Made by a program: the position numbers and the translations under genes
From: Cyanidioschyzon merolae
Taxonomy: Eukaryota
NCBI GenBank assembly: GCA_000091205.1
Contig: AP006496.2
Reading direction: 5' to 3' (one strand)
Length of the DNA: 64,000 bases
Shown: positions 1 through 64,000 of the stretch, one piece after another
How the letters are laid out: each line of letters starts with the position of its first letter
Position numbering within the stretch: position 1 is the stretch's first letter
The notes under the pieces: generated by a model
The model's input: only the letters and a program-made list of their open reading frames with translations
The model's database searches: none
Told to the model about the DNA's origin: nothing

Positions 1-1529
1 GAACACTTGCCGTCTTTGCCACTGTACTCTCGTCATCGTCCTGTTGGGCAAACACTGTTCCTGACCCATTTCCCCTCCTCTGCTTCTTTATTTGATCTTC
101 TCCGTTCGGCTTTAGTCGACAAGAGGATTTTTTCGTTCTTTTCCGGCAGTCGGCGATGTCGGGCCTCGAAAATCCTCGGCGTCCATGTCCATACCTTCTC
201 CTTCGGTTTCTTATTTCTTCAAATCAACGCACTTGCTTATGCCCTTAGATGAAGACATTCCCTGCGGGAGAAGGGCTTGCGGACGGCAGACATGGTATGC
301 CCCACTGTGTCGCCGTGTGCTGAACGCTTCAGCGATTCGCCCAGTGCAGCGATTATTGCGTTTCACGATAGAAAACACTCCTTCGATGGCATTGAAGCAC
401 GTAGAGCACCGAGGAAGGAAAAGCAGCTCTATCCCTATAGAACCGGCAAAATCCCGAACGCAAGGGGAATGGTGAAATGTCACCTGACTTCAGGGAGAAG
501 CCTTCAGTGATTTGGCAAAGCGAGTGTGATTGTGTGAGCCTTCTCTACGAGAAAGACTGCGGCCGCCAAAAGAATCCGCTGCATCTAGAATCGATGATGA
601 TTTCCGAGTTATCTTCGAGTTCGATCGGATATTCAACGGGCTCGCTGCTCCTGGACTATCCGAGCACGCTCCGACCGTATCATCCAAAGGAAGTCGCATC
701 GATTGAAGAAACAAACCGACGTCTCTCTGCTGCATATCGATACTACCTATCCAGGCACGTTGTTGTAGTTACGATTTCGGTGGAAGATGGCCGTGCGTGG
801 AACTGGACCCCATTTTTGCGACTGTATCCCAGTATTTTTAGGACAACAGGAACAAGCTATCGAGAAACAGAGACGCCCATGGTGGCTACTTTAGTCGCTT
901 TCGCTTTCAGTAAAGTCATCGACGAGTCATTTTCTACCATTGGCGGCAAGCACGCAATAAGAATACCCGTTTTTGGCGCGGAGCGCATATGCTTCTTTCT
1001 TTCCGTGTTCCTATATCATCTCTGTATTGTTGCATGACTGATCTGAAGGAGAAAAGTAGTCCTCCTTGAGCTGTTCAGTGCAGAATATATCCTACATGCA
1101 ATTCGTCTAGGATATATACAGTACATTCCAGCATGATTTCGATCCCATCCTATACATCGCAGCTGGGTTGGAGCGTAAATGAGTTGAGACACTTTAGGAG
1201 GCAGTACTGACGCGCGCTTCGGTCCCTGCACTTCCCTATTTATCTAGGCTTGTTCCAGATATACAGCCTCGACACTCAACGTGCACCAGTGAGAACTTAC
1301 GGATGCGTACTTATTTTCATGATTCTCCGGCATAGTTTCGGAGTCACTTTTTCGAGGCCTTACTGCTAGAACGCTTTGCGACGCCCTCGAACAAAGATGC
1401 GTGAATTAAGCGATATCGTTAATCAGTAGGTACTTACCAGATTGTACCCCCTTCTTTCCTTACGTGTAGCACCCTCAGATGACGCATGCTCCAAGTTCAC
1501 AGTCGTTCTATTGTAAGGCAACTCGTTGG

Positions 1530-2660
1530 CGCAACAATGCGCGCTGCTGAATTGAAGAGGAGGAGAAATTCTCCACTTCGTCCATGGTCGAGCTCATTGC
1601 ATGCATATGCTTAGAGTTCACTGAAATATTCGTGTGAAATAATGAATCCCGTTTGAGACGCAAATCCTTTCCTCATTGCAACCATAGACAAAACGGCATT
1701 CCACAATAGCGCGACGCCTCTCAACGGATATGTTCTCGGATGCTTCCGTTTCTTTTCTTTGCGTGGTAAAGGGTTCTGGACTCCGGCTTGAGTCATCGTA
1801 GCGATCGCTATTCGTGCAGAGTGCGTTTCCGCTGTATTCGAAATGTGCGTAGGGAGGAGTCGACGTTTCTTGACTTGATCTCGAGTCTAGATTTTCCTCA
1901 TGGTACGTTTTTCACCATGGACAGCATCGCGTCCCATAAACTCTCTTCTGTTCGAAAAACAGCAGAGAACGGAGGGTGAGTCATCATATTCAACCCCATT
2001 TATTCTGCATCTATCAAACCGATAGAGGACGTCATCGGGGCCGTGAAATGAAGCAGATGGAGAGATTTCGAATGGGACAACTGCACCTAGTTATGCTGCG
2101 GACGGATTACCCGGCGAGGGGATCGTCCAGAAGAAGCCCACGATCGAAGAGCACGACACCAGGCGTGAATACCAAGGGGCTCATCGCGAGGAGCCCTCTT
2201 TACCCGCCGAGGGCCTGTACCAAGCGATGAAGCAAGCATTCACGCGTCACGTGACGGTCCTCAGAGGAGGAGAAGGTCCAAATGATATATAGGAACACCT
2301 TAGCAGGTTCAAGGGCGCCCGTACGCGGGACGCACCGAGCCTGCACACAGAGAAGATGAAAATAGGAAGCGAAACGAAGATCGCATCTTGGGCCAGTCCA
2401 TTTCATCGTTCGACAGCAACTCGGAATCTAGAAATCAGATCTTGAACGCTGCCACCGATACCCTTCGACTGCTGACAACGCTGCTGGAGGGAAAGGAAAG
2501 ACCGGCGTATTTAAAGCCAAAGGTCAGCGAAGCGGAAAGGAGGCTGTCGCAGAATTATCCCCCAACGACTAATGTTCGTGGCAATGGGAAGAGACCCAAA
2601 ATTTAGTTTCTACACCCGAGTCAGCTGACTGGACCGGTTCCACTTTATTCTGAAATAGGT
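1530..2660 (+). mobile_element. Miniature, internally deleted TnpB/Fanzor-like derivative (family 2, copy a)
   Basis: 5-prime block caacaatgcgcgctgctgaattgaag, shared with the other family-2 copies. Mid block ...gacaaaacggcattccacaatagc. 3-prime remnant RNQILNAATDTLRLL (degenerate D-x-NAA-x-NIL RuvC-III motif) at about 2430. Conserved tail ...gtggcaatgggaagagacccaaaatttag...tacacccgagtcag...ttattctgaaatagg ending at about 2655. Confidence 0.6.
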
Positions 2661-2859
2661 GTGAAGCGATGCTCACTTTGGATGAAGTTTAAGGAAACTG
2701 ACCGCTCGTTGCGTCGGGGCGATGGATCTTTGTCGACGCCTTCCACGACCGAAAAACCAACCAAGCCCACAACCACTGCTTCAATGAATAGCGCAACGAA
2801 CGCTCTGCAATCAGCAATTCAAAGAACACCACACCTCATCCGTCACTACATAGAGAAAC

Positions 2860-4287
2860 TCACTGTCCACATCCCGGAACAGAGGGCGCGAAGCCTATGG
2901 ACGAATTCTCGCGATTAAAGACAGTTGTAAAACGCCGGAGGACAAGGTCGCCAATCACAACAAGTGCACCTGTGGGCGAGAGAACCTCTAGGCCCAAGCA
3001 ATAGTACAGCTCTCCAGCGAGTTCCACTCTTATTAGATATGTGTCGCGCGAGATGTTCAGCGTCGCGTCACTGTCGAATCTTATTGTTATGTCCGGGAAA
3101 CTACGGTATGCGGCATCCGAGAGGAGCGTACAGCTAGGTGCCTCCGACCAGAACCTGCTATGGCACAGGTGGGCGTCAGCTGCACAGACAACTGACTTGA
3201 TTTCCTGAATCACTTTGGTGAATGCTTCGCCACCTAACGCCATAAGCGTTGTGCCAGAGTCGAAGACCACTGGATCGGCATATGAGCGCAAGTTGGATCC
3301 ATTTGGGCCAACACGGAACTCCTTGACGCTGGCTGCATAATATGGGACAAGGCTCCGAGGAAGATACCGTACCCAAGAGTAGGGTCCCCGTCGAAAACGC
3401 GTGTCCGCCTCTGCGCCGAGAATGAGAGCGCCACCGGTATCCGATAGGCAAATACTAAAGATATTCCTCGCAACCACGCCCTCCTCGAACATGATGTCGA
3501 ACAGCGGTTTCGGGCATGATGGAGAGCATGCTGCTTCCTGGAATGCGAGCCCCCAAATGCCACCCACATTGCGCCGTTCGAACGTTGGAGAGTCATACAA
3601 AATCGCCGTGTAAAATGCTTTTCGAACGCTCAGCCCTGCACCGGGCAAACTCACAGGGCCTTGATGCAACGCTCCAAACACGTAGGAACCGTCCGCATAC
3701 GACAATATCATGCCGCAGCTTTCAGGATCAAGAAACGAGCAGCATGCTTCGTTCCTGCGAGAGCATGCTCCACAGAGCGCGCTGCAAGTCCCCGATAGAC
3801 ACACGCTGGAGTCGCTGCAGGGAACCCTGGTGGCATTCCAGTCCGATAATCGTATAATGCCGTCACTCCGCGGACAGTCTAGGCATCGTGACACTGCGAA
3901 GGCCAGGTTGGCGCTCCCCGTGTCAATCTGAACGCCAATCTCCTGACCATCTACACCCAACCGGGCGTAGTATTCACCAAGTGGAAGAAGCTCGCCGTGT
4001 AGCGGCTCAACGGCGCCAGCGCGGAATACCGCAGCCGCAGAGGCCCGCTGCACCGCTGGAGCAAAGTTCGCTCCGCCTGCACTCGAACCAAGCGCACCCT
4101 CGAGCCCGGCCCGCACGTGCTGGTACTTGAGCAAAGCGGGCCGCACTTCGGCAACTTTCTGGTGGCGTTTCTCGAGGGGTAGCACCCGTGTTGCTGCAGC
4201 GGCCGCAAGAGTCAGCGCCTCACAGAGCATCACTGCCCATAAGAGAACGGCCAACACCAGCCGCACAGCGCTACTAGTCAAGTGCAT
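2860..4287 (-). CDS. Pepsin-like (A1 family) aspartic protease, secreted or vacuolar
   Basis: Both catalytic motifs are present: VQIDTGSANLAF (DTGS) and VVFDSGTTLMAL (DSGT), with the conserved flap and Cys-rich regions. The track ORF 2860..4464 was trimmed to the in-frame ATG (cat at 4285-4287), which precedes a hydrophobic signal peptide MHLTSSAVRLVLAVLLWAVML. Confidence 0.8.
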   Translation of the reverse strand: MHLTSSAVRLVLAVLLWAVMLCEALTLAAAAATRVLPLEKRHQKVAEVRPALLKYQHVRAGLEGALGSSAGGANFAPAVQRASAAAVFRAGAVEPLHGELLPLGEYYARLGVDGQEIGVQIDTGSANLAFAVSRCLDCPRSDGIIRLSDWNATRVPCSDSSVCLSGTCSALCGACSRRNEACCSFLDPESCGMILSYADGSYVFGALHQGPVSLPGAGLSVRKAFYTAILYDSPTFERRNVGGIWGLAFQEAACSPSCPKPLFDIMFEEGVVARNIFSICLSDTGGALILGAEADTRFRRGPYSWVRYLPRSLVPYYAASVKEFRVGPNGSNLRSYADPVVFDSGTTLMALGGEAFTKVIQEIKSVVCAADAHLCHSRFWSEAPSCTLLSDAAYRSFPDITIRFDSDATLNISRDTYLIRVELAGELYYCLGLEVLSPTGALVVIGDLVLRRFTTVFNRENSSIGFAPSVPGCGQ

Positions 4288-4765: not shown

Positions 4766-5695
4766 ATGGGAACTGCACACGAGTCACTTGTTGTCGCAAC
4801 CTGGGAGTTCTCGCAAAGCGGAGTCGAAAGCTGTTTTGACTGCCTTCGGAAAGGTGGAAAACCGCTCGACGCAGTTGAAACTGGCATACACGTTGTAGAA
4901 CTCGAACCGACTGTGACCTCAGTCGGATACGGAGGCCTGCCGAACGCGAACGGCGAACTAGAGCTCGACGCAGCCATCACGGACGGTGCCCACTTCGGGG
5001 CTGTGTTTGCTTTGAGGGGATATCGCAGCGCGATCGGGATCGCTCGGGGAGTTCTGGAGCGCAGCGAGCATACGGCACTAGCGGGCAACGGCGCTGTGAA
5101 CTTTGCCCAGGAAGTTCTCGGTGAAGCACCCTTGCCCGATTCGGAGCTGCTAACCGAACACGCTCGACGCCGTCTGGCGGAATACCGAGCCGGCAGGTTC
5201 CAAGGACGGCCCAATGAATCGCATGACACCGTAGGGATGATAGCGGCTCAAAGCACAGGTGATATTGCCGCCGGCTGCGCCACTTCGGGATACCCGTTCA
5301 AGCGACCCGGCCGAGTGGGCGACTCACCGCTACCCGGCGGCGGACTTTTCTGTGAATCGGGGCTGGGGGCGGCGGTAGCTACTGGTGATGGTGACGACCT
5401 CATGCGTCTGTGCCCGACGCATCTCATTGTCGAACTCATGCGAAATGGACAGAGTCCCCAGCGCGCATGTGAAGAGGCCGTTCAGCGGGTCATGAGATAC
5501 CGTGAGCAGACAGGTCGAGATTGCCGTGGCGCGTTCATTGCCGTGCGCTGTGATGCCCTCGCTTGGGGTGCACATGCGACGCACGAAGGCTTCGTGGTTG
5601 CCCATGCCGATGGTCGACGCATGGATCAATCATTGCTTATACCTGTTGAGGTACCCGAAGCGAGGAACAAGCCCTGGCGACGCGTCTGTGTCTAG
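4766..5695 (+). CDS. Isoaspartyl peptidase / L-asparaginase (Ntn-hydrolase, plant-type asparaginase family)
   Basis: The autoproteolytic and nucleophile motif HDTVGMIA is present. GRVGDSPLPGGG and GDGDDLMRL blocks are typical of asparaginase_2 / glycosylasparaginase. The start is a true ATG at 4766. The last ~20 codons lie inside a 93-bp tandem repeat. Confidence 0.8.
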   Translation: MGTAHESLVVATWEFSQSGVESCFDCLRKGGKPLDAVETGIHVVELEPTVTSVGYGGLPNANGELELDAAITDGAHFGAVFALRGYRSAIGIARGVLERSEHTALAGNGAVNFAQEVLGEAPLPDSELLTEHARRRLAEYRAGRFQGRPNESHDTVGMIAAQSTGDIAAGCATSGYPFKRPGRVGDSPLPGGGLFCESGLGAAVATGDGDDLMRLCPTHLIVELMRNGQSPQRACEEAVQRVMRYREQTGRDCRGAFIAVRCDALAWGAHATHEGFVVAHADGRRMDQSLLIPVEVPEARNKPWRRVCV

Positions 5696-5900
5696 GCTTG
5701 CCGATGGTCGACACATGAATCCTGCATTGCTTGTATCTGTTAAAGTACCCGAGGCGAGGAACAAGCCCTGGCGACGCGTCTGTGTCTGGGCTTGCGGATG
5801 GTCGACACGTGAATCATGCATTGCTTGTACCTGTTGAAGTACCCGAGGCGAGGAACAAGCCCTGGCGACGCATTTGTGTCTAGGTTTGAGCCGCGTAATG
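5631..5900. repeat. Tandem repeat, about 93-bp unit x about 2.9 copies
   Basis: Units begin at about 5631, 5725 and 5817 (cattgcttatacctgttgaggtacccgaagcgaggaacaagccctggcgacgcgtctgtgtctaggcttgccgatggtcgacacatgaatc...). They are about 90 percent identical. The first unit contains the asparaginase stop codon. Confidence 0.85.
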
Positions 5901-6785: not shown

Positions 6786-7412
6786 TCATACCTTGCGCAG
6801 AATGGATGACGGATATCCCGACGGAGCTTTCAATACTGCTCGAGCGTAGAGCGCTCCACTGAGAACGGTGGTGGACCCCACGACCCAGCAGAGCGCCTGC
6901 AGAACAGGGTCGTCATCACCGGTACCCATTGCTGCTCCCAAACTCGCATACGAGATGGTGCAGAACTGCCCGAAAGTATTCAGCTTGCTGATAAACAGCG
7001 GCGCTACTCGATATGGCCAGGCGTCGCTGCTCTGCGAACGCGCAGGTTGCCCAACTGCGGCGTCCCGACGACGCGCTTCACGATAGAGCTTCACTGCAAA
7101 GTAGGCTCCACCCAGGATGAGGAGCGAGTCTCGAGCCAGAAACACACCGACAAGCCCAAGCGGGAGGACACCCTTCGCACTCAGGGCAGCAGCCGTTGCA
7201 TTGATCACTACTTTGTCCGCCACGGGGTCGAGTATGGACCCCAGCGTCGTCACCTTTTGGTACTTTCTGGCCAAGTATCCGTCCAGAACGTCGCTAACAC
7301 CTGCTGCTGCTACGGCCAAGGCAGCTATACTATAGTAATCGTTTACTATTAGGCCCCCAATAACAGGCGCCGTCACAAGTCGAGCCAGAGAAACCAGGTT
7401 TGCGGCGTGCAT
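6786..7412 (-). CDS. CDP-alcohol phosphatidyltransferase, cardiolipin-synthase-like (eukaryotic CLS type)
   Basis: CDP-OH phosphotransferase motif DGYLARKYQKVTTLGSILDPVADKV (D-G-x2-A-R...G-x3-D-x3-D). The N-terminus NLVSLARLVTAPVIGGL resembles the CRLS1 start. ATG verified at 7410-7412. Confidence 0.8.
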   Translation of the reverse strand: MHAANLVSLARLVTAPVIGGLIVNDYYSIAALAVAAAGVSDVLDGYLARKYQKVTTLGSILDPVADKVVINATAAALSAKGVLPLGLVGVFLARDSLLILGGAYFAVKLYREARRRDAAVGQPARSQSSDAWPYRVAPLFISKLNTFGQFCTISYASLGAAMGTGDDDPVLQALCWVVGSTTVLSGALYARAVLKAPSGYPSSILRKV

Positions 7413-7454
7413 GGCAAGAGCTTCGAACGATAGCTATCCGCGTTCGGGATCGCA

Positions 7455-7880
7455 CGTGGAATAGAAATGCCGTGTAGATGCTTCGATAATAGGCGATACT
7501 TTGGAGGATCCGTTGTCGATGCATCGATAATGAGCGATGCTTTGAAGGATGCCGTGTAGGTGCTTCGATAATAGGCGATACTTTGGAGGATCCGTTGTCG
7601 ATGCATCGATAATGAGCGATGCTTTGAAGGATGCCGTGTAGGTGCTTCGATAATAGGCGATACTTTGGAGGATCCGTTGTCGATGCATCGATTATGAGCG
7701 ATGCTTTGAAGGATGCAGTATAGATGCTTCGATAATAGGCGATACTTTGGAGGATCCGTTGTCGATGCATCGATAATGAGCGATGCTTTGAAGGATGCAG
7801 TATAGATGCTTCGATAATAGGCGATACTTTGGAGGATCCGTTGTCGATGCATCGATAATGAGCGATGCTTTGAAGGATGC
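7455..7880. repeat. 82-bp minisatellite, about 5 copies, plus a degenerate relic at about 7960-8035
   Basis: The string cttcgataat recurs at 7481, 7563 and 7645 (period 82). The unit is gcttcgataataggcgatactttggaggatccgttgtcgatgcatcgataatgagcgatgctttgaaggatgccgtgtaggt. It is rich in ATCGAT and ATGCAT palindromes. Every frame on both strands is open across it, so the track ORFs 7330..8055, 7373..7939 and 7692..8042 are repeat artefacts. Confidence 0.9.
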
Positions 7881-10659
7881 TGGAATCTGGAGGGAAACAG
7901 CTTGCTCTGCCGTGCTTGGTGCCCACAGAAGTTCCGCATGGAACAGAACTGCCGTGCCGATACATCGATTGCGAGCGACGCTTTGAGGGATTATGTGCGG
8001 TTTTATGGTGTAATGTCGATGCATCGAAACAAGCATATCCAAAAGTCCTGTTCAAGGGCTGGAAGCATCAGACTCCAGCAGCGAGGTCGCTACAGCAGCA
8101 ACGAGCGTTATCTCTTTGGCAATATCGCAGAGAGAGCAGGGTGTTACCTAGTATGTTCTCCTCAGCAAAAGGTGTGGCCAACTGTTGCTGGGCTCTATAT
8201 AATGCCCTGAGCACATGGTGAACTCGCGTCTCGCCACAGGAGGCACTTTCTTGAATGTCTTGGTTTTCGTATGACACGTTAAGGCTGGCAAGTTTCGCTG
8301 TAGTACATCAACTTTCGACCCCCTTTAGTCTCCACGCGAGCGTTCCGAGTCCACCATAGGGAGCTACGATGCGAATAGGTCGTACGACTCCTGTCCAATG
8401 CTGTAGGATGGAGGGACCTCTGTTAGAACGCCGCCGAAGACTCCCATACGACCTCTTAACAAGGGACGTTGACAGCACCGTGGTTGGAGCGCGACGACTG
8501 TCAGAGCACCAACGGTGTTCTTCATTGAGAAGTTGCAGAACAAGTTCAGCACCGCAGTATTCACAGAGAGTGCTCGACGAGCTCTGTCAAGGACGCTTCT
8601 CCACTCGGAACTGATGCACTGGGCTGGCCGCCGCTAGCACGGTCCGAGCGGCACGGGCATCTGTGCAAGCCGCTCGATCCAACAATCCTACACTACAAAA
8701 CATGCAATCTGTACGCTTACGTCATCCGTAGAAGGCACCAGACCGCGCCTTGAAATGCTGTCCTATGTGGTGACTCACTCGCACATTTTGCCAGCAACAA
8801 GGCGGCTCCGATGCATGTAGTGAATCCGCTCAATGAGGACACTTCGATGGTGTTCGCTGGCCCTTGTATGCAGGTAAGCGTGCAGCTCGAAATGGAAGCC
8901 TTTCCCTGCCGGTCTGTGAACATGATAGCTCAATGCATACGCCATCGATTTCAGGAGGATATTGCAAATCGGCTACAGGAACGGCATCGCGAACCCAAGG
9001 AGCAACAGGCGGGTCAGTATGACCGGAAACAGCAGCGCACGTCCATGGCCCTCCTCCCGGGAGCGCTGGACTGTTTAGAGGTGGGATTTTCGCCTCGCGT
9101 TTATTCTGCCGTGGGTCTTTCCAATAGTTGTGCCGCTATCTTGTCTTTACCGCGCAGTATAGAGCGAAACTATGCGCGCCCGGCAGGGTTACTATACAGG
9201 TTGGGTCGTTCGCACTCACCTGGGTATGCGTTGCCTACACAAAGTACGGAGCGCATCCACGAGTGTCTCCGAAGCGGGTGCCGCAGTTCGTTTTTTTCGA
9301 ACGGCATTGCAAGTATCCTGTGCTTCATCCGATCGAAAGCACCATCCGCGAACACCTTGTGATACTGGTCTCTATCACTCAACCGATCAGTTCCATACGG
9401 AAGCGCTGTATAAAAATCAGCGCGAACAGCGTCTGGGGTTCAAAGTCGTTAAAGGGTCGGCCCCTCTCAAAAATTCACTGAATGACTGCAGCTCAATGAA
9501 TCTGACTGAGTTTTCAGTTGCCTACGACCAGAGCGCAAGCAGGTCTTTCACAGTGACGAGCGTGCTGTTTCCAAAACCATCAAGGATCATCTTGTGGATT
9601 CTTTCTTCCCCGGGAGGCCGTCGAGCGGAAACTGTGGAGCGTTGCTTTAGCGATGCGTGGGTATTCCCAAAGGAACACGTACCACCATACCAGAATAAGC
9701 ACTGATGTGATTATCGCTGAGTATGGACGGAATGGTAACAGGCACCAAGAAAATGTGATGCAAGCTTCACCAAAAAGCAAAATAGTCCACGGCTGGCACC
9801 AGGGAGGTTTCAGTGCTCGGTAAACTTGCAGAGCATCCTGAGCAGCTGCACGAACTGTGCGACGCCGGAGCGGAGGTTCACGTAGCTGCAAATGTAGGTG
9901 GGTAGAGCCCCGTGACTTGCCACGGCACCTCAGAGACAGCCGCTTTACAGGACATCTCAGCCGTTTTAGGCGGGCACAAGCCTTTGGAACATATGAGGTT
10001 CGGTGAGCCGCACAGTCTGCAACAGCGAACCCGAAAAACAGCGTCCACGGCATGCTTTCACAGCGCACTATCTGGCTGCCTTCCGGAGCGAATGGAAGCC
10101 CTGAGTACTCAATTCGAGTACTGTTCCCACTTCTGTTCCCAGCTTGTCTGACAAAGCCAAGAACGCCTCCTGTAACGCATTCAACGAGCAAGGTAAATGC
10201 TCCAACGCTTCGGAGCGAGGCAGGACGTGCTCCTCAAACGCTTTTTTTCACCTAAAGCTAGTGGAGCTCGTCGAGTGAAATTATGCTCTACAGCGGCAGC
10301 GTCTACGCCGCTGTAAACCTTAAAATAAACCGACCTCTGTGGTTAACAGGTTTCGCTTACGTAAAGATGCACAGGCAAGCGCAGCGTCCCGAAGCAAAAA
10401 CGTTCCAGAACTCTAATATATGCTCAGCAGTTGTTGGTATCGGATGGATCCTGCCGTAGTGCAAGCAGTCCGCACTTTGGGATTCTTTGATCGCGGCCTC
10501 AGTGTCCGAAGTGACGCTGGACCGAATCTTTTCTCTTCAAGCAGCACATAATCGAGTAGTGAACATGTTCCATAGCTAGTCTGTCTGCAGCCGCGCTGTC
10601 TGCATTCGACACGACTCGGGCAGAAAGCCTCTACACCTATGTCAGAGTACAACAGAACA

Positions 10660-11700
10660 AGCCCACTCATCTATCTCGGGTGTCTACACTAGAATATGGG
10701 TCTTCCGACCGCCATCAACATTAGCCTCTGCAGTTTTTTTCTGTGACAGCTTCCTTTTCCATTCTTGTCTCCGGCTTCAAACGCACAGGTCTTTCGCTTC
10801 TCTACAGCTCGGTTCACAGCAGCCGAAGGATGTTTACGGCAATGTGCAAGTCCCGATTTCGCCGTTTCAGGTCGCTGTCTAGGCCTTTCATCAACAGACC
10901 GAAGTTGCTAACTACACATTGCTTGTCACTTTGATCTTCTTCGTATACTACCTTGGTGTGCACTTTTCTGTGGCGACGCGTGGCTGTCGTCAGGTGTTCC
11001 CATTTGTCCACCATAGCTTCTCATCCAAGGGCCGCTCTGTAGCACGTGAACGCCTGCTCGATGTCTCGGTACATGCCGTTGTGAGGTACACAGAGATCGA
11101 CACGATGCATTTCTCCGTTTCCGCGCATGGTACCGCACTTAACGATACAAGGCTTCTTCTGTACGATCCTTCAGCGAGGGACTTGTGCGCTACACATGCG
11201 GAAGCGCACGCAGTGCCATTCTGTTGAGGTTTCGTGGAACGCGATGTTGTCTATGGCGAAACACGGACCGTAACGAAAATCCAGGCTAGAGAAGGAGTCG
11301 AGGACCTTCGATCTGTGTACACTCCTTTCGTGCAAAGCGGTGAAGCGTTCTCCACTATAATTGATCGCTGCGACAACTCAAGTCCGAGTCCAAGCCCCTT
11401 TTTCATGCAAACAGAAGAGAAAGGGGCCCCTGGGAGCATATCCCGTAAGTGCTATCATGCTGTTGATGTCGAATGCCGTTTCTTCGATGGCTACATGGAA
11501 AGTAGGATACGTCTTTCGAAGGAAGTCGATTATTTGGCATGAGAAATTTAGTGAACGGTCCGCATTAGCTTGTGAACAAGTTGTCAAGGGACAACGTCGA
11601 GTTCGTTTCATCGTCAATCCAGCGACCCGCATTGCTGCGCTTTCAGTCTGCTTTGAAACAGAAATAGAACGGTTTGAGAATCCGTAATTTGAACATGCTT
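10660..11700 (-). mobile_element. Miniature TnpB/Fanzor-like derivative (family 2, copy b)
   Basis: On the minus strand: 5-prime block gcaatgcgggtcgctggattgacgatg. Mid block FHVAIEETAFD (track ORF 11378..11632). 3-prime remnant KRRNRDLHIAVNILRLL (track ORF 10814..11014). Conserved tail ctaatgttgatggcggtcggaagacccatattctag...agacacccgagatag. Confidence 0.6.
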
Positions 11701-12105
11701 CGCGTAAGAACAGGGAAAGAGTGTAGGCTCATGCGTATGAGTTTGATATGATATCGTTCATGTTTACGAATCCTTCTTCAAGGGCATCGCAACGTATCTT
11801 ATTTCCGGTGACGTAAAGAATTCAAGCGGCAGAGCCTCGGAGCCGTTCCAGAAGGACGACCGAGAATCCTGAAACTACGTTTGCATCCGTAAACCCTTAT
11901 TGATGCTCTTCAATTATAGAGGCTTTTGCATCTACGAAAAGTTTGAGAAAAATCGAAAGAGAACAATAAAGCGTGCCGTTCTTTATTCCATCTCAATTTA
12001 ACCGAAGTCCAGTGGCTGCGGGCTTGCAAGTAGCGTCGTGCGTTTGTCCAGCCTCGGTTACGCTGTTCGTCGCTGCAGTGCGTTTGGTTGGTGAGTGTTT
12101 TTTCC

Positions 12106-13344: not shown

Positions 13345-13374
13345 GAACGTAAGGCGAGCTATACGCTTCGTCGT

Positions 13375-16629: not shown

Positions 16630-17089
16630 AGCTGGACGGCAGCAACGAGGCTTTTCAAAAAGATGCCGGTGGCGGCGCTCGTTCCGCTGCTGCGCAATGG
16701 CTTGGCGGCAGTGGCGGCTATACTCGTGTCAGATGAAAATAGAATACGAAAATACTTGCTTTGTTCTTAACTTTCGATTTTTCTTCCGGACTTTCTAGAT
16801 CCACAGACTCGGCATACGAATCACAGCAATAGGGGCTTCCGGATAAACATCTGCTTTTAGAAGTCTGGTTCTTCTTCCCGGAGTGGCTCATTCGACTCTT
16901 TGGCGCTGGAACTCGTTACATTACCGGAATCAAACTGATTCGCGACGCCCTCTAAAAAGGGTTTCTAAATAACCGATATCATGATCGAATTTTTACGTAA
17001 AAAACTCCACGCTTCTCGATTCTTTAGGAATGGCGTGCTCAAATCAGACTTTACTCAAGTTTTCCGCTTTCTGTATCAAGGAAACTTGA

Positions 17090-19215: not shown

Positions 19216-19328
19216 CATTTTATTCGAACGTGGGTGTGGGCTTTGAAAACGGCGCTGGCAACAGTGCTACCGGGAGAAGCATCTGCCGCGCTAAGTAAGA
19301 GCTTTTGGCGGGTTCACTTGAGGCCGGC

Positions 19329-47010: not shown

Positions 47011-47175
47011 CTAGGGCCGTCCTTTCCATGAGATCAAATCGATGATGGACCGAACGAGCGACACAAAATGGGATCCACTTCGGTGCCTGTGTTCTCCGAG
47101 AGAGCGTGATCGGTAGCCTCCTGAGGTCCATTTCAACGCTCTCATTTCCATGCAGCATGATCCAGCCGCATCACA

Positions 47176-47310
47176 GGGATCCCCTAAAGCGCGTTGGTGT
47201 TCATGACATTTTATCGATGGACCTACCTGGGATCCCCTGCACTGCGCATTGATGTTCATGACATTTTAGCGATGGACCTCCCTGGGATCCCCTGCAGTGC
47301 GCTTTCGATG
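47176..47310. repeat. Tandem repeat, about 55-bp unit x about 2.4
   Basis: gggatcccctgcactgcgcattgatgttcatgacattttagcgatggacctccct is repeated; it starts about 165 bp after the copy-e terminus. Confidence 0.8.
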
Positions 47311-51893: not shown

Positions 51894-51918
51894 GACGCGA
51901 CGCGACGCGACGCGACGC
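51894..51918. repeat. (GACGC)5 microsatellite
   Basis: gacgcgacgcgacgcgacgcgacgc is seen directly. Confidence 0.9.
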
Positions 51919-54031: not shown

Positions 54032-54948
54032 CTCGTGAGTTCCGTACCAAAAGCAGGCAGCTCCCAAGTGCCCAGTCGCCGTAGGGCGATCAGTCCGCCA
54101 CCTTTGTCAGAGGCCAAGCCGCTGGCTCGTGTTCTCTCGTAGCCAGCGGAGCGCCTACAGCGTTTCCTAGCAGGGCACCGAGCGTCCTGAACGTCTCCGC
54201 AAACTTTCAGAGTTGTGGGAGCTCAGTCTGGTACCTATACAAGTGCTTACGAATGCGTACGGGTGTGCTTCAGCTACGAATGCGCGTGAGAGCAACCGCG
54301 AGTAATGCGCTGCGCTTCCTGGACTGGACAGGAAGCTGCGTTAAGAAGCCGTTTGGGAAAGCGTTATTAAATTTTGCTGTGTTTCAGTATCGTGGAGCTT
54401 TTGAGTTCCACCATTTAATGAAGAGACTTTATGGAGCCGTTTAGGGTACAAGTATCACCAGAACCGGATCAAAAACACACAATAAGGTGTTCGGTACTGG
54501 GAGCTCTACACTGACCACGCGTGGAAAACACATAGCGGGTAGCTGCTCACGGGTTCGGGCGTGTCTCGTTACCCGAATGCTGACATGGCTTGCAACTATT
54601 TTTCAGAGGTGTTGGGGAACCGAACCTAGCGTGTGGGGCTCGCGTGGCTGGCGCTGTCGTGGTGCGCCGCTTCAAGGGCGCTCTGCTTGATGTTCGCTTT
54701 GCGTAACGGGTCCTCTGTCCATAGGTTCGCTCTTCGGTTCGTGGTGCCCTGGGCGAGCGCCGATAGCCGTTAGCGTCGCTAGAGCACGTACGAGTATTAC
54801 TCAGGGAACGTGTATGCAACCGTCAGGGCAACGCTTCGCCGACAAGACTGCTGCTCCCTCAAGGTGTTTGGGCGCCTTCCCGTAGCCGATGCAAATGCTC
54901 CCCGCAGCCGTTCTCCACCGTCATTCTAAACGGATCTGTTTGTGCAGA

Positions 54949-55066
54949 ATATGCAGGCATGCACATTGTCGCATGCTTTTACATGCCTGGAAGATTCACT
55001 TTGAGCTATATATGCAGGCATGCACATTGTCGCATGCTTTCAGCACTGCAAACTCTACATACATGC
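54949..55066. repeat. Direct repeat of about 59 bp, 2 copies
   Basis: atatgcaggcatgcacattgtcgcatgcttt... occurs at 54949 and again at 55008. Confidence 0.75.
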
Positions 55067-57339: not shown

Positions 57340-57730
57340 ATCCATAAAGCGTAACTACAGAGCACTTAGCATCTGTTGCACGAGTAGGAAACTGGATGGA
57401 ATGCTCCACTCCAACCTGCGGCGATGCAGCACAGCAGATCCAGATACAATATTTGCAGGACATTTCGCGTCAAGTGCACAGGTAGGAAACTGAAAAGAGT
57501 GCTCCGCTCCAACCTGCGGCGATACAGCACATCAGATACAGGTAGAGTCTTTGCAAGACATTTCGCGTCAGTTGCACAGTTAGGAACCTGACAAGAGCAC
57601 TCCACTCCAGCGAACCGCAATGCAACACAGCAGATCCAAATAAGTCTTTGCTGGACATTTCGCGTCAAGTACACAGATAGGAACCTGAGAAGAGCGCTAC
57701 GCTCCAGCGTGCTGCACCGCAGCCCGAGCT
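57340..57730. repeat. Tandem repeat, about 96-bp unit x about 4
   Basis: The unit (gacatttcgcgtcaagtgcacaggtaggaaactgaaaagagtgctccgctccaacctgcggcgatacagcacatcagatacaggtagagtctttgcaa) recurs four times at 80-90 percent identity. It lies between the convergent Maf and 57925-59115 genes. Confidence 0.85.
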
Positions 57731-57924
57731 CTATACACGAGATACGCGCTGAAGCGAGGCTCCCGAGCACATCCAGAGCTACTAGCGACTGTCCAGGGCC
57801 CACCGGACGTCGATGCGTCACTAGGATTAGACAGGTCCGCGGGAATTGAACATTTAATCGAAGATCAATGGTTCCGATTTCATCTCGACTTTATGATTGC
57901 CAGGAAGTGGTGCGTTAATCGCGA

Positions 57925-59115
57925 TTACATAAGCGCTTCGGGCTCTTCCAGCTCCATCAGCTTCGCGCACAAGGACGGCACAACCTGTGCAGGCCAGAGA
58001 CCCTCGACGATTCGCTCCCTACCGAGCAGGATCAAGCGTAGGTCGTAACTGTAGGGGCTGCCCGAGGCGCCTAGCCACATCAAACTGCTCTCGAACTCGG
58101 CAACAATTCTGCTGCTTTCTCCGTCAGACGCGTTCCACGAAATTCGCTCCTTACAAAACCCATCCCCCGAATGCACGGGTACACCTTGCGCGGTGGGTTT
58201 CGACGCCACGCCATTCATTATATCGCCCATTTTGTACTGTAGGGCCTGCACCAGCCTCCGAAAATGCCGGAATTCCTCGCGCGAGAGTGCAATCGTCCAA
58301 TGATCATCGCCCACGAGAGCACAGTCAGACGGCGGTGCCGCGGGATCGTGGCCGATCTTGAAACCTGGCCCGCTGAAAACATACTGGGGACGTACGCCTC
58401 GCGGTGCCGAATGATCGCCATCGCGTACTATAAGCGAGCAGCAGCCATTGATATCGCACTCCACGATCATTTGCGCAGGCTCACTTTTCTGGATTGGGAG
58501 CTCCATGGCAGGAGCAGAGTATTCATCGCCTTGCAGTTGCTGCCCCATTTCGTCCAGATTTGGAGTCGACGCTGCTGTGTAGGTTACGCTGTTTGCATAG
58601 TCGTCACCGGCATCGTTCAGGCCCGTCCGAGGAAGCTGGTACCAGCCGGTAGTGTCCTGCTCGGGCTCGACAAACAGCTCCGCATCGGAGACCGCAACTT
58701 TCCTTCCGACTTGCGCGCGAACTGCCTCTTGTCCGGACGCCGCCTTGCCCTCTTCTGGGCGCATCTTTGCCCGCACCTCTTGCAGCAGCTCGTCGAGCTG
58801 TGAGCGCAAATCGTCCAGTGCTTTCATCGCCTGCTTGCGCATCCGCTCCCTTCGTTCGCTGATTGCCCTCAGCTCAGCCTTAAGCTGCTCCTGTGTCTTC
58901 CGCGGCCGCATAGGAAGCACGCTGGGAATATCCGCATGCGACTCGCCTGAATCGCTGGACGGTATCGAAGACGACTCCTGGAGCGTTATCAGCGGTGCCG
59001 TCGCGCCACGGCGTCGCCTGCCGGTGCCCTTAGCATCGACCCTGGAGCTTGATCTCGCTGCCACGGCAACCGAGGGACACAGACTCCAGGCACCGGGATA
59101 CGCAAAACCAATCAT
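57925..59115 (-). CDS. Hypothetical protein, 396 aa (N-terminal coiled coil, Cys-containing C-terminal region)
   Basis: Long ORF. ATG at 59113-59115 (the track start at 59121 is GTG). No recognised domain; it contains ECDINGCCSLIVRDGDHSAP. The real gene status is uncertain. Confidence 0.4.
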   Translation of the reverse strand: MIGFAYPGAWSLCPSVAVAARSSSRVDAKGTGRRRRGATAPLITLQESSSIPSSDSGESHADIPSVLPMRPRKTQEQLKAELRAISERRERMRKQAMKALDDLRSQLDELLQEVRAKMRPEEGKAASGQEAVRAQVGRKVAVSDAELFVEPEQDTTGWYQLPRTGLNDAGDDYANSVTYTAASTPNLDEMGQQLQGDEYSAPAMELPIQKSEPAQMIVECDINGCCSLIVRDGDHSAPRGVRPQYVFSGPGFKIGHDPAAPPSDCALVGDDHWTIALSREEFRHFRRLVQALQYKMGDIMNGVASKPTAQGVPVHSGDGFCKERISWNASDGESSRIVAEFESSLMWLGASGSPYSYDLRLILLGRERIVEGLWPAQVVPSLCAKLMELEEPEALM

Positions 59116-59439
59116 AAGCACAAAAATAAACGCGTATCTCTGCGCAGCTCAGAGAAACTCCAACGGTGTCACCGCTTGCAGCAGCGAATCGAGGAGAGTT
59201 TTCTCGGAATGAACTGCGAACGTGCACCGGGTCGCGACGGTGCTCAGCTGGAAGTCGCCGCCGCCGCCGCCGCCGTGCTGCACATCTGAATGGATTGACG
59301 GGCGATACAGGATGTTGTTGTGGTACAGTCTTTCATCTCCATTGTGTTCCATCCCCGGGGTTCTTGTTATCAAATGCTTTTCGCAGTTTATAGCAGATTC
59401 GGCACAAGTGCGTTCATTTAAAAGAAGTACAAATTCCAA

Positions 59440-61620
59440 AGGAGCGGTACGGACATGGAAGTCTAGGATCCTGGAGGGTCGATGTCGGCGCCTGCTGGAA
59501 AAAGCACGGAATACAATGCCGAGCTCAGAGGACCAAGAGAAGATGAAGAGGCAAAAGCAGGAGGTCCGACGTCAACAGCAATTCGAAAGGCTAGACTGTG
59601 AAGAGATTGTAGTGGAAGCCAGTCTTCATCGACATATCAATGATCCGCACAAGCGAAATATGCAAGAGGCCATCAGAAACCGTATCGCGTCGTACTCTAC
59701 GAGTGTTTGTATCGCTTCTCCAGGAATAATCCGTTTGGTGAGGGAGATGGATCACGACGTGACGGAGATCAAAACAGTCGAGGTTTCGGGGGAATTTTTC
59801 GACAGGACCTTTATTCGTTACCTGATGGTTGGCACAGGGGAAATGTCGAGGAGAAATGAGCGAGTGCAAGCCCCGCACGAAAATCATGCTGAATAACGCT
59901 TCAACGGTACTAGATATAGGGACACTGGCGAATCTACGAATACGGCGTGATGGACAACATCACGAACCTGAAGAGCCATATGACCGTGAACCTCAAACGC
60001 TTCATGATACGCTCCATCTTTGCGTTCTTCCCTGGCCTGTCTCGCAAGCGGACATGGGCCATCATCGATGTCAGCATGAACGATCGTCGGAACGAAGAGG
60101 AGATCGAAATTGTCGGTAAGAAGACGCCACGCAAGAGAAAGAATGAAGCTTCTGTAATCCGCGCGACTATTCATGAGCACCGTGCGGTCTTGGGTCTTGT
60201 AAATCCAACAGAAAAGGTAACAGATACAAAAAAGACGCTATCCCCTCATCCTGCGCTGTTTCGTCCTCCTGAACCGAGAGCTCGAACGCAAGCCCGATAT
60301 GGAGCAGCGTGCGGAAGAAAAAGCAGAGTCGGTGGAACGGAAGGTTTCCCTACTTGGGAAGCGCTTCGGCGTCGTTCTGTTGTGCAACATAAAGTCATGT
60401 TTCATGAGTATCGATTCCAGCGTCCTTTACGGTATTATGAGGGATATGTGTCCGGAGTTCTTTATCAGCAACAAGGAGTTTACAGGTCAAAACCGGGAAA
60501 CTTATTGGAGAAATAGATTCGATTCAAGCGTTTCAACACGAGCAAGAAAAGGGTACGCACGGGGCGATCGAAACCGATGTATTAGCCATGCGTGTGCACT
60601 ATCAGCGCTTAACGGCAGATTGTCCAGTTCCGTCGTCGGCTTCGCCCTCGGCGAAGCACAAAAAGAAGAAGGCGGGCCCTGGAACGTATAATCCCCCGGA
60701 GAACAACTTTGTCGTCGGCGTGGGCCCGGAGAACAAGGATATCATGAGCATCGCTGTGTCCAAGTGTGGGGAGGATGGTATCGACGGCAACTTATGCCAA
60801 AAAGACATGCATCTTTTAAAGCTATCGAGAGCGAAATATTACAGAGATTCTGGGGTATTTAATGCGAGGAAACTAATTGAGATATGGAACTCAGGAGTAA
60901 AGGAGCATCTGGAAGCGATCAGCAATGTAACGCTCCGCGGAGTGTACTTTCGAGTTTTTCCGGAATTCATGGAAACCCAAGCTGCTCATTACGAGGAGCT
61001 GCGGAAAGAGTACACAAAGCCGCGTTGGGCTCGTCAGCGTATGAACCTGTACAGACTGAAGCAGCACGCACTCGCCGACTTCCTTAATCTGTTGACCGCC
61101 CTCAAGGAGGACAAGAGTCAAAGGCTTTTATTGGCACACGGAGCAGGGAACTGGGCGTCCAAAAAAGGGAGCATACGAGCTCTATCGGCACGAGCGGACA
61201 TGGAGTGCGCACTGCGTTTTGTCACAATATCGATACATGAGTTCCGAATAGCGTACGTGCTCGATGGGCTGGAGTGTACACTTCAGAAGGTCGATACGGA
61301 CAGAAGCCAGCCGAGCGTTTCGGAGACAGAAAAGTCCGGAGAGCGGACAGAAGAGCAAATGGAACGGAGGGCACGAGTTCGGGGAATCCTTGCATATTTG
61401 AGTACAGCCAGCGGCAATGCTGGAAAGAGTCGGTGAATCGAGACTTCAACGCCGCCACCAATATCAGGAAATGTGCGGTGCTGGAGAAGAGACCCCAGGA
61501 GCTGACGCGATCCAACTTTGTCGTGCAGCCTATCAGGGTCGAAGTGTACAAGTAGCTGAAGACGATAGCAGCGGGCCAGTCAAAATAGGCCGTAAGGCGC
61601 CTGCGCGTTGGTATGAATTT
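59440..61620 (+). mobile_element. Fanzor/TnpB-like (OrfB-type, RuvC nuclease) element, family 1, copy 2. Frameshifted, and the RuvC-I Asp is lost.
   Basis: Coding pieces are track ORFs 59222.., 59947.., 60299.., 60588.. and 61274... RuvC-I position GVGPENKDIMSIAVSKCGEDGIDGNLCQKDMHLLKLSRAKYY at about 60720. RuvC-II-like RFVTISIHEFRIAYV at about 61200. Cys cluster plus RuvC-III CIFEYSQRQCWKESVNRDFNAATNI at about 61430-61480. The stop is at 61555, followed by a conserved non-coding tail. Confidence 0.75.
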
Positions 61621-62756
61621 ATCCAACACGGCCGAGAGAAAGTTTTCGTTTCACTGAGCGTTTGTGAAAGTTGTGTGGCTTTGTTGACGGGCGCATGGTT
61701 GCTTTCTTGCAAAGTGGCGCGTTTCCGCTCAACGGCAAGCTATGGAGTTGGACGGCGTCTCCTAAAGGGAGGCCTCTTCGCTGCGAGCGGACCCGGAAGC
61801 TGTCGTGGCGTAGAGGCCGTGGCTCCTGGTCGGTGCGGGCGTCGCACTCGGGCGAGACGGACCCACGACTGGTGCAACTTGGTGGAACAGACCGCACAGG
61901 AACCTCAGGCGACCACGAAAGGTTGCTGTGGGAGGCGTTAGAGCGCGACGTGAGCGAAGCTGAAACCGTAGGTAAGCTTCCACAGCCTTTGAGGACAGAG
62001 CTTTTGTCGAAAATAAGGGAATTTGTAGAAGAGGTAGCGCAGCGTCAGTCAGTGCACGATCTGAAAAGTGCGGATTTCGCACTTAAGGATGAGGCCCTAG
62101 CGCCCGACAGTCAGTGGCAGCTCGTTGAACCTAACGAACCGTCGGACGCGGTTCGCTCCACCCAGCCCAGGCGTGCATCGAGTTTTGGGCCGGCTGCTGA
62201 CTGCCTCACACAAAGCCCGCGAGATCGGCTCGCTTCTCAGCCCGGAGGCGCGGACTTTAATCAAAACGGCCAAGAACGCCTTGCAGGCATCAATACCTCA
62301 GGCGTGGACAGCCCTGAGAAAAGGTCAGTGTGTCCGCCCACTGCCGTACACAGAAGGAGCACTGTTTCCGTTCACGCGGAAGAGTGGACTTGGTCAGATG
62401 ATAGCGCGTACGACCCGGTTGATGGAGCGAATGAATACAGACCCGAACAACAACTCAACTCTGATACGCCAAACCCGATACGAGGGAGTGCAAAAGACCC
62501 CTCTGAAAGAGATATCAAAGCCCAGGAGTCCGCGCACCACGCTACCGAGGATCGAGAAATCCTCTCAGAATTGTCGGAAGTCGAGCATGCCAACGACGAT
62601 CGTACCCTGGACACACGCGATGCGTATGGGCGGATGCAGCAGCGCTTGCGCCCAGCGTCACGCACGCAAATGCGCATGGATGTGCCTGGCAACGACACGC
62701 AGCGCGCGCGCGAAGATGCACGAATCGGCCCCGAGCAGCCTGTGTCGCAAGCATCG

Positions 62757-64000
62757 ATGCGCCCTGGGAAACGCTATCGACGGCGAACTGGGAACGGGAC
62801 ACGTGTCGGGATAGCGACCCCCGAGCCGGAGCAGCCTCCGGCATCGCGCGCCCTGCCAGAGCGGCTCGCGAAAGATGCCCATGACTCCGCAACGGATGAG
62901 GAAGTCTTCAGGCTGGCCCGAATGTATTATGCTCAGTTTCGAGGGATGCTAAGTCTCGCACTTCGAGAGGTATCGGAGTGCAACGCTGAACGGTGGAATC
63001 GACGCGAGAGGCTCACGAGTCGTCTCCGCTCGACCCTGGAGGGTGCCATCGCGCTTCTGGGAGAAGCGGGCACCGAAAGACTCGTGACTACCAATGACAT
63101 GAACGATCTGCTGAGCTGCCTCGCGGGGCTGCGTTTCCTCGACGAGCTGGAGGAGGTCCTCGAACTGATGGAGTCGCGAAATATTCCACGTGACAATCGC
63201 ACGTATACCCTCGTGCTAGACGCCCTCTGCAAGGCGAAGCGCATTGATACCGCCATCGATATATTTGAGAACTATGTGGTTCGTGGGGCCGCCCAGGATG
63301 GAGCACCCTGCGGCGGTCGGCATCAACGCGCTAGTCGAGTGCATCCTACCCTTGTGATGTACAATATACTTATTGGGGGCTGCGCACGGACCCTGCGTCT
63401 GGACAAGGCGTTTGAGTTTTTCGAACGCCTACAGAGTCCTCCTGACAACTTTTCGCCGGATACCCATACATACTGCGCTCTTCTGGATGCCTGCGCTAGG
63501 TGCAGTAACACGGAGCTCGCGCTGCACGTCTTTGAAGAAATCGAGCGCAAGGGCGAGCAGATAGACAGTGCGGTGTACGGAGCTCTGCTCGCGGCAGTTG
63601 CCCGCTCTGGAGACCGTCGCCTCGCGTTCGCTGTTCGCGGACTCATGCGACGCCGTGGCCTTGCTCCGACGACTGCGGTGTTTGCCAACTTGATGGAGCT
63701 CTGTGCGGCGGATGGGGACTATTTAAGCGGCTTTGCACTTCTCCGGGAGATGCGGGCCTGGGGTAGGGATCCCACGCATCCCATTTACGTGAATCTCATG
63801 AATGCCTGTGGACGCAGTGGCCAACCAGAGTACGCAATGGCGGTTCTGGACTTGATGAAGTCGAATGGCGTTGCTCCATCGGAGTCAGCGTACTGTGCTC
63901 TTATCGACGCCTGGGCGCGCATCAAGCGCCTTGATCGAGCGTTCGGAGTCTGGAGAGATATGCGAGCCGGCGGCTTTGAGCCGCGGCTGCGTACGGCGAG
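62757..64000 (+). CDS. Pentatricopeptide-repeat (PPR) protein, 5-prime partial. The ORF runs off the window end.
   Basis: The reading frame stays open from a TGA at about 62505 to the end of the window, so the ORF track cannot list it. The first in-frame ATG is at 62757 (MRPGKRYRRR...). There are at least six PPR-like 35-aa units, for example TYTLVLDALCKAKRIDTAIDIF, VMYNILIGGCARTLRLDKAFEFF, THTYCALLDACARCSNTELALHVF, AVYGALLAAVARSGDRRLAF, HPIYVNLMNACGRSGQPEYAMAVLDLM and SAYCALIDAWARIKRLDRAFGVW. The exact start is uncertain. Confidence 0.65.
   Translation, partial: MRPGKRYRRRTGNGTRVGIATPEPEQPPASRALPERLAKDAHDSATDEEVFRLARMYYAQFRGMLSLALREVSECNAERWNRRERLTSRLRSTLEGAIALLGEAGTERLVTTNDMNDLLSCLAGLRFLDELEEVLELMESRNIPRDNRTYTLVLDALCKAKRIDTAIDIFENYVVRGAAQDGAPCGGRHQRASRVHPTLVMYNILIGGCARTLRLDKAFEFFERLQSPPDNFSPDTHTYCALLDACARCSNTELALHVFEEIERKGEQIDSAVYGALLAAVARSGDRRLAFAVRGLMRRRGLAPTTAVFANLMELCAADGDYLSGFALLREMRAWGRDPTHPIYVNLMNACGRSGQPEYAMAVLDLMKSNGVAPSESAYCALIDAWARIKRLDRAFGVWRDMRAGGFEPRLRTA

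Follow-up and report, generated by a model that had tools for sequence, protein, structure and literature searches.

We analyzed a 64,000-nt stretch of contig AP006496.2 from the red alga Cyanidioschyzon merolae (assembly GCA_000091205.1; hereafter the window), whose intergenic spacers carry decayed transposon sequences related to TnpB and Fanzor nucleases. The window is ~54% G+C, and its long uninterrupted open reading frames (ORFs) encode DNA polymerase delta, a formin, a RubisCO-LSMT-like SET protein, an aspartyl protease and galactokinase. Of seven such eukaryotic housekeeping ORFs that were looked up, five are identical to NCBI proteins of C. merolae 10D (among them DNA polymerase delta, BAM81299.1, and CYME_CMN205C), a sixth belongs to the 90% cluster of the annotated 10D protein, and the formin ORF was absent from the collection. 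By the locus-tag convention for this species, the prefix CMN denotes chromosome 14. Scans of the 64 kb against Rfam and for tRNAs were both empty.

Self-comparison of the window revealed two mutually unrelated repeat families, A and B. Together they account for eight sizeable copies (two of A and six of B), to which two fragments at the left edge are added. The remnants add up to 14.9 kb, which is 23% of the window; no intact one is among them (Table 1). Each of the eight ORF-free gaps of at least 1.8 kb contains one element. We consider it very probable that two ancient families of DNA transposons, each once the carrier of a Fanzor1, filled these spacers with copies that have been decaying neutrally: family A, which corresponds to the known CMe-1A, and family B, a deleted Tc1/mariner-like composite.

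Several of these sequences had been noticed in an original prediction made from the letters of the window, and Fanzor/TnpB-homologous sequence is indeed present in all seven intervals that it listed. Its count of at least seven holds for those seven; B4 and the two left-edge fragments were overlooked. The extents it gave were too small for A1, B3 and B6, the last of which had been seen only in its 3′ third. It was also right that no copy is intact: A1 and A2 are disabled by frameshifts, stops and lost motifs, and the short copies are mostly deleted. The statement that every long spacer carries a remnant is borne out for gaps of at least 1.8 kb, but not below that size, as eight further spacers of 0.85–1.6 kb (including 42708–44280) contain no detectable remnant.

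The C. merolae genome is ~16.5 Mb in size. A published EDTA annotation of this genome contains 1755 transposable elements (TEs), comprising Mutator, Helitron and CACTA elements and 40% “unknown”, without a Tc1/mariner class. These figures predict ~7 TEs per 64 kb, so the density of remnants, which had been called high, is not exceptional. Old transposon DNA is recognisable over about one quarter of the window, in a red-alga sequence regarded as “compact”, and family B may explain part of the unknown fraction in an automated annotation that lacks the Tc1/mariner class.

Table 1. Transposon remnants in the window, ordered by position
Feature	Position	Strand	Description
CMe-1A fragment	79-255	-	consensus 843-1011; nhmmer E 9.7e-11; blastn 75.7% identity
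DDE_3 (Tc1/mariner-like) transposase remnant	283-1126	-	decayed, colinear; tblastn and profile matches; Pfam match just under the cut-off
B1	1238-2679	+	1.4 kb; nhmmer score 1158; transposase and Fanzor profile matches; 3′ terminal repeat ends at 2661
B2	10617-11985	-	1.35 kb; transposase residues ~80-236 at 11704->11225; Fanzor C-terminus at 11170->10778
B3	16745-19259	+	2.5 kb, less deleted; extent also delimited as 16721-19236; Fanzor profile matches 18026-18148 and 18709-19131
B4	23781-25149	+	1.35 kb; nhmmer score 1245; transposase profile 23868-24168; Fanzor profile 24537-24692
A1	36178-39257	+	3.1 kb, full-length, whole copy 36177-39291 (consensus 2-3094); aligned consensus 2-3089; 80.5% identity; nhmmer score 2094
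B5	41389-42707	+	1.3 kb; nhmmer score 1155; Fanzor C-terminal matches 42348-42626
B6	45671-47028	+	1.35 kb; nhmmer score 1209; transposase matches 45718-46412; Fanzor matches 46331-46888
A2	59321-61616	+	5′-truncated, whole copy 59321-61622; consensus 783-3096; 77.7% identity; nhmmer score 1438

A short element made of transposase and Fanzor pieces

The extents of the family B copies were mapped with an nhmmer profile built for this family. Pfam scans of single ORF fragments within the remnants returned nothing, and tblastx self-comparison of the window was uninformative, giving matches in every frame; only consensus and profile approaches succeeded. Read across its frameshifts, the consensus of the six copies encodes two unrelated protein pieces on one strand. 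The 5′ piece (...LIVAIDETAFDSSMIPLTGYAPRGS...CFAMDNIASHKS) matches the Pfam domain DDE_3 (E-value 3.6e-7; score 30.6 bits, cut-off 28.6) over profile positions 2–96 of 146, the end of the match at position 96 being explained by truncation through deletion. The 3′ piece (...GNGGGHRGEPSVPVK...VVNIWEHLTTAKCHRC...FRLCMKC...NRDLNAAMNILRLL, also read as WEHLTTAKCHRC...FRLCMKC...NRDLNAAMNIL) matches Cas12f1-like_TNB, formerly OrfB_Zn_ribbon (E-value 5.4e-8, 33.3 bits against a cut-off of 26.3). Within this piece, the consensus contains RuvC-II as WEHLTT, a C4 zinc finger as CHRC...CMKC (CxxC...CxxC in the relatives described below) and RuvC-III as NRDLNAAMNIL.

Mapping by tblastn and profiles shows that the standard B element consists of transposase residues ~1–236 fused to Fanzor residues ~545–786. 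Of the transposase it thus retains the initial ~70%, and of the Fanzor the final ~30%; the bulk of both ORFs is gone. Two copies deviate from this form. B1 carries an additional 119 nt of transposase, to about residue 267, and reaches the region of the PIE motif (...YSASIKPIEDV). B3 has the usual ends and an extra ~1 kb of Fanzor sequence (17630–18661), which includes the WED motif LEIDGVGV and a remnant of RuvC-I, IGLDPERANLHT; this motif is GLDPGRVN in relatives, persists as IGLDPERAN in B3, and is deleted in the other five copies. Nowhere in the window is an intact parent seen.

Intact relatives with the parental layout occur in other sequence collections. A profile seeded with the few database relatives of the B 3′ piece was run against 1.8 billion representative proteins and returned full-length proteins of 680–790 aa with the motifs SIETDGVG, GLDPGRVNLYT, WEHLTTxKCxxC, FRxCxxC and NRDFNAAINIL. 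A profile of these full-length relatives matched solved Fanzor1 structures, namely 9cf0 (PpFz; E-value 9.8e-11) and 8gkh (SpuFz; E-value 4.8e-5). The complete layout is found in the metagenome contig L023 and, as an independent insertion, in L021. Over ~3.6 kb, both show in order a TA dinucleotide, a 27–28-nt terminal inverted repeat (TACAACCGTGAAAATTAAAATGGAACA), a 329-aa transposase, a 786-aa Fanzor1, the inverted repeat and TA, with the Fanzor1 uninterrupted and oriented like the transposase gene. Their transposases match DDE_3 with 98.5 and 90.1 bits (E-value 4e-28) and also contain an HTH_33 domain. The 3′ ends of the window copies are well conserved, and their reverse strand, CACCTATGTCAGAATAAAATGGAAC, is ~76% identical to the 5′ repeat of L023 in a hand alignment.

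Judged by sequence, family B is an internal-deletion derivative of a Tc1/mariner-like (DDE_3) transposon that carried its own Fanzor1, and it is a different and older family than CMe-1A. We did not find it described for C. merolae in the literature searched, which did not extend to Repbase.

A number of ORFs run antisense to the remnants on the minus strand (17492–18184, 18607–19218, 24345–24929 and 38896–39534; 194–230 aa). They are absent from the NCBI annotation and probably spurious, and the three long ones at 17492–18184, 18607–19218 and 24345–24929 have no Pfam match. An assignment of the family B coding strand to the strand of these ORFs was dropped on the same grounds. More generally, no ORF inside the remnants is an NCBI-annotated C. 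merolae protein, and metagenome pipelines label such antisense ORFs “hypothetical proteins”.

CMe-1A copies and their relatives

CMe-1A has been reported as a family of ~150 copies in C. merolae, ~80% identical to a ~3-kb consensus that encodes a 734-aa Fanzor1; it was described as lacking inverted ends, as of unknown class, with target-site duplications undeterminable, as having some intact copies, and as “non-autonomous” (Bao & Jurka 2013, PMC3627910). The same study lists a single Fanzor family for the C. merolae genome, defines Fanzor1 by the motif D-X(125,275)-[TS][TS]-X-X-[C4 zinc finger]-X(5,50)-RD, and places CMe-1 in this group. We compared the published 3169-bp consensus (supplement of PMC3627910) with the window by blastn and nhmmer, which delimited the two sizeable copies, A1 and A2, and the fragment at the left edge. 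The fragment covers the 5′ leader and the first ~35 Fanzor1 codons and runs off the edge of the window. In self-comparison, A1 and A2 are 71.6% identical to each other.

The frame of the 734-aa Fanzor1 is recognisable throughout the family A copies, and ORF fragments within them hold VSADPGNTNIITIA and NRDFNAATNIRK, which resemble RuvC-I and RuvC-III motifs. In A1, the Fanzor1 remnant (~37080–39260) has nine frameshifts and nine in-frame stops; in A2, there are nine frameshifts and four stops. The catalytic motifs have decayed differently in the two copies. RuvC-I, with its aspartate, is GADPGNT in the consensus and in relatives, SADPGNT in A1 and GVGPENK in A2 (GADPG to GVGPE). The RuvC-II glutamate and the adjoining [TS][TS] are VDEFRTS in the family, IDEFRTT in A1 and IHEFRIA in A2. 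RuvC-III, NRDFNAAINI, is intact in A2 (NRDFNAA) and reads KLELNTS in A1, where NRD has become KLE. Mismatches to the consensus are spread nearly evenly over the three codon positions (0.21/0.16/0.24 in A1 and 0.20/0.18/0.25 in A2), as neutral decay predicts. A1, A2 and the fragment at 79–255 are ordinary dead members of a known family.

A perfect 14-bp direct repeat, TTCGCCATGACGAT, lies on both sides of A1 (36160–36173 and 39292–39305). Among 2000 random pairs drawn from the window, the longest shared word was 12 bases. We regard the repeat as a candidate target-site duplication of A1. The repeat is strikingly unmutated given the ~20% divergence of A1 from its consensus, and A1 is a single case, as flanking direct repeats were not found at three other full-length CMe-1A copies (in contigs L025 and L028/L029). 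A 15-nt inverted match within the CMe-1A consensus (positions 5–19 and ~3093–3107) was rejected as a terminal repeat, its score of 11 being too weak against a null of 6.9 ± 1.1 with a maximum of 12.

The CMe-1 consensus was also used as a query; no C. merolae protein of NCBI was among the matches. They included P0324, a 752-aa protein with 71% identity that is encoded on a 49-kb metagenome contig, in an unbroken frame with GADPGNT, VDEFRTS and NRDFNAA; P0176 (756 aa) is another uninterrupted Fanzor1 relative. An intact, active member had been expected elsewhere in the genome; an uninterrupted relative that retains the D, E and D of the three RuvC motifs is represented by P0324, whereas for 10D itself the statement rests on the report that some CMe-1A copies are intact (PMC3627910). 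In CMe-1-type Fanzors, a tandem acidic unit of ~25 aa (...KHEEKKEADPATQEVQDNDFVV...) stands directly N-terminal to RuvC-I and varies in copy number; it is carried by P0324, P0005, P0013 and P0014 (L025 6221–6374; L029 6426–6651) and produces repeated matches to consensus positions 2117–2196.

More distant CMe-1 Fanzor relatives lie downstream of DDE_3 transposases. In L026 (3–3456) the Fanzor is 43% identical and the element has 28-nt inverted ends; in L027 (304–3804) these values are 33% and 41 nt. Both elements are TA-flanked, so that TA is present at both ends in all four of L023, L021, L026 and L027. L026 and L027 suggest a Tc1/mariner-like ancestry for the unclassified CMe-1A, and the observation that the Fanzor1 lineages of A and B both have Tc1/mariner-like relatives helps to place this family.

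At the left edge of the window, a decayed, colinear transposase remnant stands immediately upstream of the CMe-1A fragment. With the L023 transposase, tblastn matched residues 225–290 at 489->283 (E-value 8e-7) and residues 14–112 at 1099->815; the remnant matches a transposase profile with an E-value of 1.7e-8, and its match to Pfam DDE_3 (E-value 9.3e-6, 26 bits) is just below the cut-off of 28.6 bits. The remnant runs from 1126 to 283 and, 28 nt on, CMe-1A starts in the same orientation (255->79), an arrangement that imitates the order of a composite element and is cut by the window edge. Compared with the CMe-1-linked transposase, the B-type enzyme is the remnant’s closer relative; we do not claim the remnant as CMe-1’s own.

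Relation, spread and decay of the two families

The original prediction regarded the long and short remnants as a single TnpB-like family, in which a 2.2-kb autonomous form gave rise to ~1-kb deletion derivatives sharing one 3′ tail. Both size classes do end in the RuvC-III motif NRD(F/L)NAA(I/M)NI, and their proteins are distant homologs: comparison of an A profile with the B Fanzor profile by hhalign gave a probability of 99.3% (E-value 4.6e-20, ~350 columns), and the B-type Fanzor profile also picks up A1 and A2 in six-frame translation. This motif is all that the families were found to have in common at their ends. No DNA similarity between A and B was detected by blastn or nhmmer, nor any similarity by tblastn with the CMe-1 protein, and their 3′ ends, when aligned at the DNA level, scored 20, no better than shuffled sequences (14.6 ± 2.4, maximum 24). 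The Fanzor proteins are only ~18% identical, and the canonical CxxC...CxxC finger and the DDE_3 half are confined to the short class. The long class encodes no transposase; its product is a nuclease, and the label autonomous does not fit an element that its describers call non-autonomous (PMC3627910). We consider descent of the short elements from the long ones highly improbable. Profile homology combined with low identity instead indicates that both are Fanzor1 but belong to separate lineages, and C. merolae, as judged from these remnants, carried at least two Fanzor1 lineages.

The six B copies all lie inside 47 kb, as they would if a segment of this chromosome region had been duplicated locally. 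Their divergence does not follow position, however. The identities of the 15 pairs span only 55–62%; divergence is even over the length of the element and star-like, and neighbours are no more alike than other pairs. Flanks are unrelated, the limits of homology coincide with the element ends throughout, and both orientations are represented. On other contigs, unrelated genes adjoin the 1.35-kb junction form as well: it stands beside a P5A-ATPase gene in L004, L006, L007 and L008, occurs as two copies in L009–L011, and is found with a CMe-1 copy in L025. Family A, for its part, is reported at ~150 genomic copies. Dispersed, star-like copies point to ancient transposition, as had been proposed, and we give local duplication hardly any weight. 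For family B, the pattern agrees with a single old burst in which a non-autonomous element multiplied.

A third possibility is that some remnants were kept for a benefit to the host, as promoter or spacer DNA of divergent housekeeping genes or as sources of guide-like RNA. In six of the eight elements (B2, B3, A1, B5, B6 and A2), the 5′ end and the start codon of a divergent housekeeping gene are 95–250 bp apart, these neighbours being galactokinase, DNA polymerase delta, proteasome alpha1, eIF2-alpha and the ORFs 44281–45576 and 57925–59115, and B3 makes up 2515 of the 2699 bp that separate DNA polymerase delta from the adjacent gene. Yet decay is uniform along the elements, without a conserved block, and the three codon positions of A1 and A2 have taken up substitutions almost equally. 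In compact genomes, insertions commonly target nucleosome-free DNA close to promoters, and a divergent intergenic region is in any case bordered by gene starts on both sides. Host benefit thus appears improbable, if a little less so than the two preceding alternatives, and we retain the reading of two ancient, neutrally decaying transposon families.

Transposases of the Tc1/mariner–IS630 group with a DDE_3 domain act by cut-and-paste at TA sites and recognise inverted ends, so an internally deleted copy that retains both ends could be moved in trans. Family A is a ~3.2-kb element that encodes only the 734-aa Fanzor1 and relied on something else for its movement. The parent of family B was probably an element of ~3.6 kb, bounded on both sides by TA and a ~27-bp inverted repeat, in which the DDE_3 transposase gene preceded that of Fanzor1. 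A single deletion inside it, joining about residue 236 of the transposase to about residue 545 of the Fanzor, probably created the 1.35-kb non-autonomous form with both ends, which the DDE transposase of full-length copies may then have moved in trans by cut-and-paste. Characterised Fanzors are RNA-guided DNA endonucleases whose guide comes from the 3′ region adjoining the right end of the element (PMC10530073), and TnpB with such guides cuts vacated sites, so that repair restores the element, according to one report (PMC10690162). By analogy with TnpB, the Fanzor and 3′-encoded guide RNA of active parents most likely cut vacated or empty sites, and repair would have re-copied the element. Every copy in the window is by now dead. 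The elements of the window can accordingly be described, as the original prediction did, as once-proliferating transposons with a TnpB-like protein, a Fanzor1; RNA-guided transposition is not indicated, and B would have been moved by its DDE transposase.

Several observations weigh against this reading. For family B, inverted repeats are weakly detectable: three of six 5′ ends exceed the 95th percentile of the null when compared with the L023 repeat (B2 at the 99th percentile and B6 above it). The TA flanks are mostly eroded, with TA present at the 5′ end of B3 and the 3′ ends of B2 and B5 and only the inner base elsewhere. The composite relatives come from other organisms, with G+C contents of 42–57% and ~35–40% protein identity to the window copies, and copies of B are known from the window and metagenome contigs rather than from a genome-wide C. 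merolae count. For family A, the zinc finger is degenerate (HHELGC...C only, without the second CxxC pair and without a Pfam match), no transposase remnant was found inside CMe-1A, and its ends do not match the inverted repeats of its relatives. The AlphaFold model of a CMe-1-type protein is poor (mean predicted local distance difference test score 53.5). On the supporting side, when this poor model was searched with Foldseek, its only significant PDB matches were the Fanzor1 proteins SpuFz, GtFz and PpFz, and the top six PDB matches were all Fanzor1 (E-values 2e-10 to 3e-8, template-modelling scores 0.33–0.51). PDB sequence searches with a single CMe-1-type protein, with P0176 alone and with an A-type profile found no Fanzor.

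A more far-reaching joint reading, which we put forward as speculative and rather unlikely, would make B a guide-RNA-carrying miniature element that used both transposase and Fanzor in trans, and would derive CMe-1A from the same Tc1/mariner–Fanzor lineage. B retains both ends, which a transposase needs, as well as the final ~30% of the Fanzor ORF with the right end, a region in which the guide scaffold lies in characterised systems, and may therefore be more than a random deletion product. If so, its status as a guide carrier would help to explain why the junction form outnumbers everything else in the window. The transposase-to-Fanzor order at the left edge and the DDE_3-linked relatives in L026 and L027 suggest the proposed descent of CMe-1A; were it true, the 14-bp repeat at A1 would be a hint that mobilisation later took a different form.

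Some features of the window fall outside these families. The spacer 42708–44280 (1.57 kb, beside B5) has no ORF of at least 80 aa and no transposon, tRNA or Rfam match; a putative transposase remnant at 42.7–44.3 kb was rejected, having a tblastn E-value of only 0.008 and no confirmation in a profile search. A tandem array at 7467–7880 consists of five 82-nt units that are 98% identical, each built from two 41-nt halves that have diverged. Since the minus strand is open here in all three frames, the 241-aa ORF at 7330–8055 may be spurious. Four more repeats, tandem or nearly so, are situated within or close to intergenic DNA, at 5605–5888 (94 nt × 3), 57377–57706 (98 nt × 3.4), 47189–47310 (55 nt × 2.2) and 54939–55040 (a 41-nt pair, 61 nt apart).

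Comparison with known systems

The TnpB proteins of IS200/IS605 and IS607 elements share with the Fanzors described here the RuvC-I, -II and -III motifs, in family B also the zinc finger between II and III, and, presumably, a role as a transposon-borne, RNA-guided nuclease. They differ in size (~400 aa, compared with ~730–790 aa), and the Fanzors reside in a eukaryotic host with a DDE enzyme as partner. TnpA, the tyrosine (Y1) or serine partner of TnpB elements, has no counterpart here, as DDE_3 transposase remnants were the only ones found in the window. The solved structures matched by our Fanzors are Fanzor1 and not TnpB.

Three of the uninterrupted relatives may be of practical interest. 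If L023 (whose 786-aa Fanzor1 is accompanied by its own transposase), P0176 and P0324 derive from hot acidic sites, as C. merolae does, they could be candidate heat-tolerant RNA-guided nucleases; the public metagenome collections that supplied their contigs also contain near-identical C. merolae-type contigs. The understanding of Fanzor biology is unchanged by the window copies, which are inert.

Family A of the window is the same family as CMe-1A, and its ~80% identity to the consensus agrees with the original description (PMC3627910; Mob DNA 4:12). What is added here is the 14-bp repeat at A1 and the occurrence of CMe-1 relatives in TA-flanked DDE_3 elements. For family B, the closest precedent is PUl-1 of Pythium ultimum, a 3620-bp element with 24-bp terminal inverted repeats, a TA duplication, a Mariner transposase and an 802-aa Fanzor1 (PMC3627910). 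Fanzor1c proteins likewise associate with Mariner/Tc1 elements (Jiang et al. 2023, PMC10530073). The parent of family B represented by L023 and L021 follows the same plan, at ~3.6 kb and with the Fanzor1 co-oriented with the transposase, and non-autonomous relatives that retain the ends have been described in the PUl-1 group, as in family B. The lineage and the host, a red alga, are different, and B spread as a specific deletion chimera of transposase and Fanzor. The phenomenon is therefore largely known: family A has been in the literature since 2013, and family B joins it as a new Mariner/Tc1-with-Fanzor1 element.

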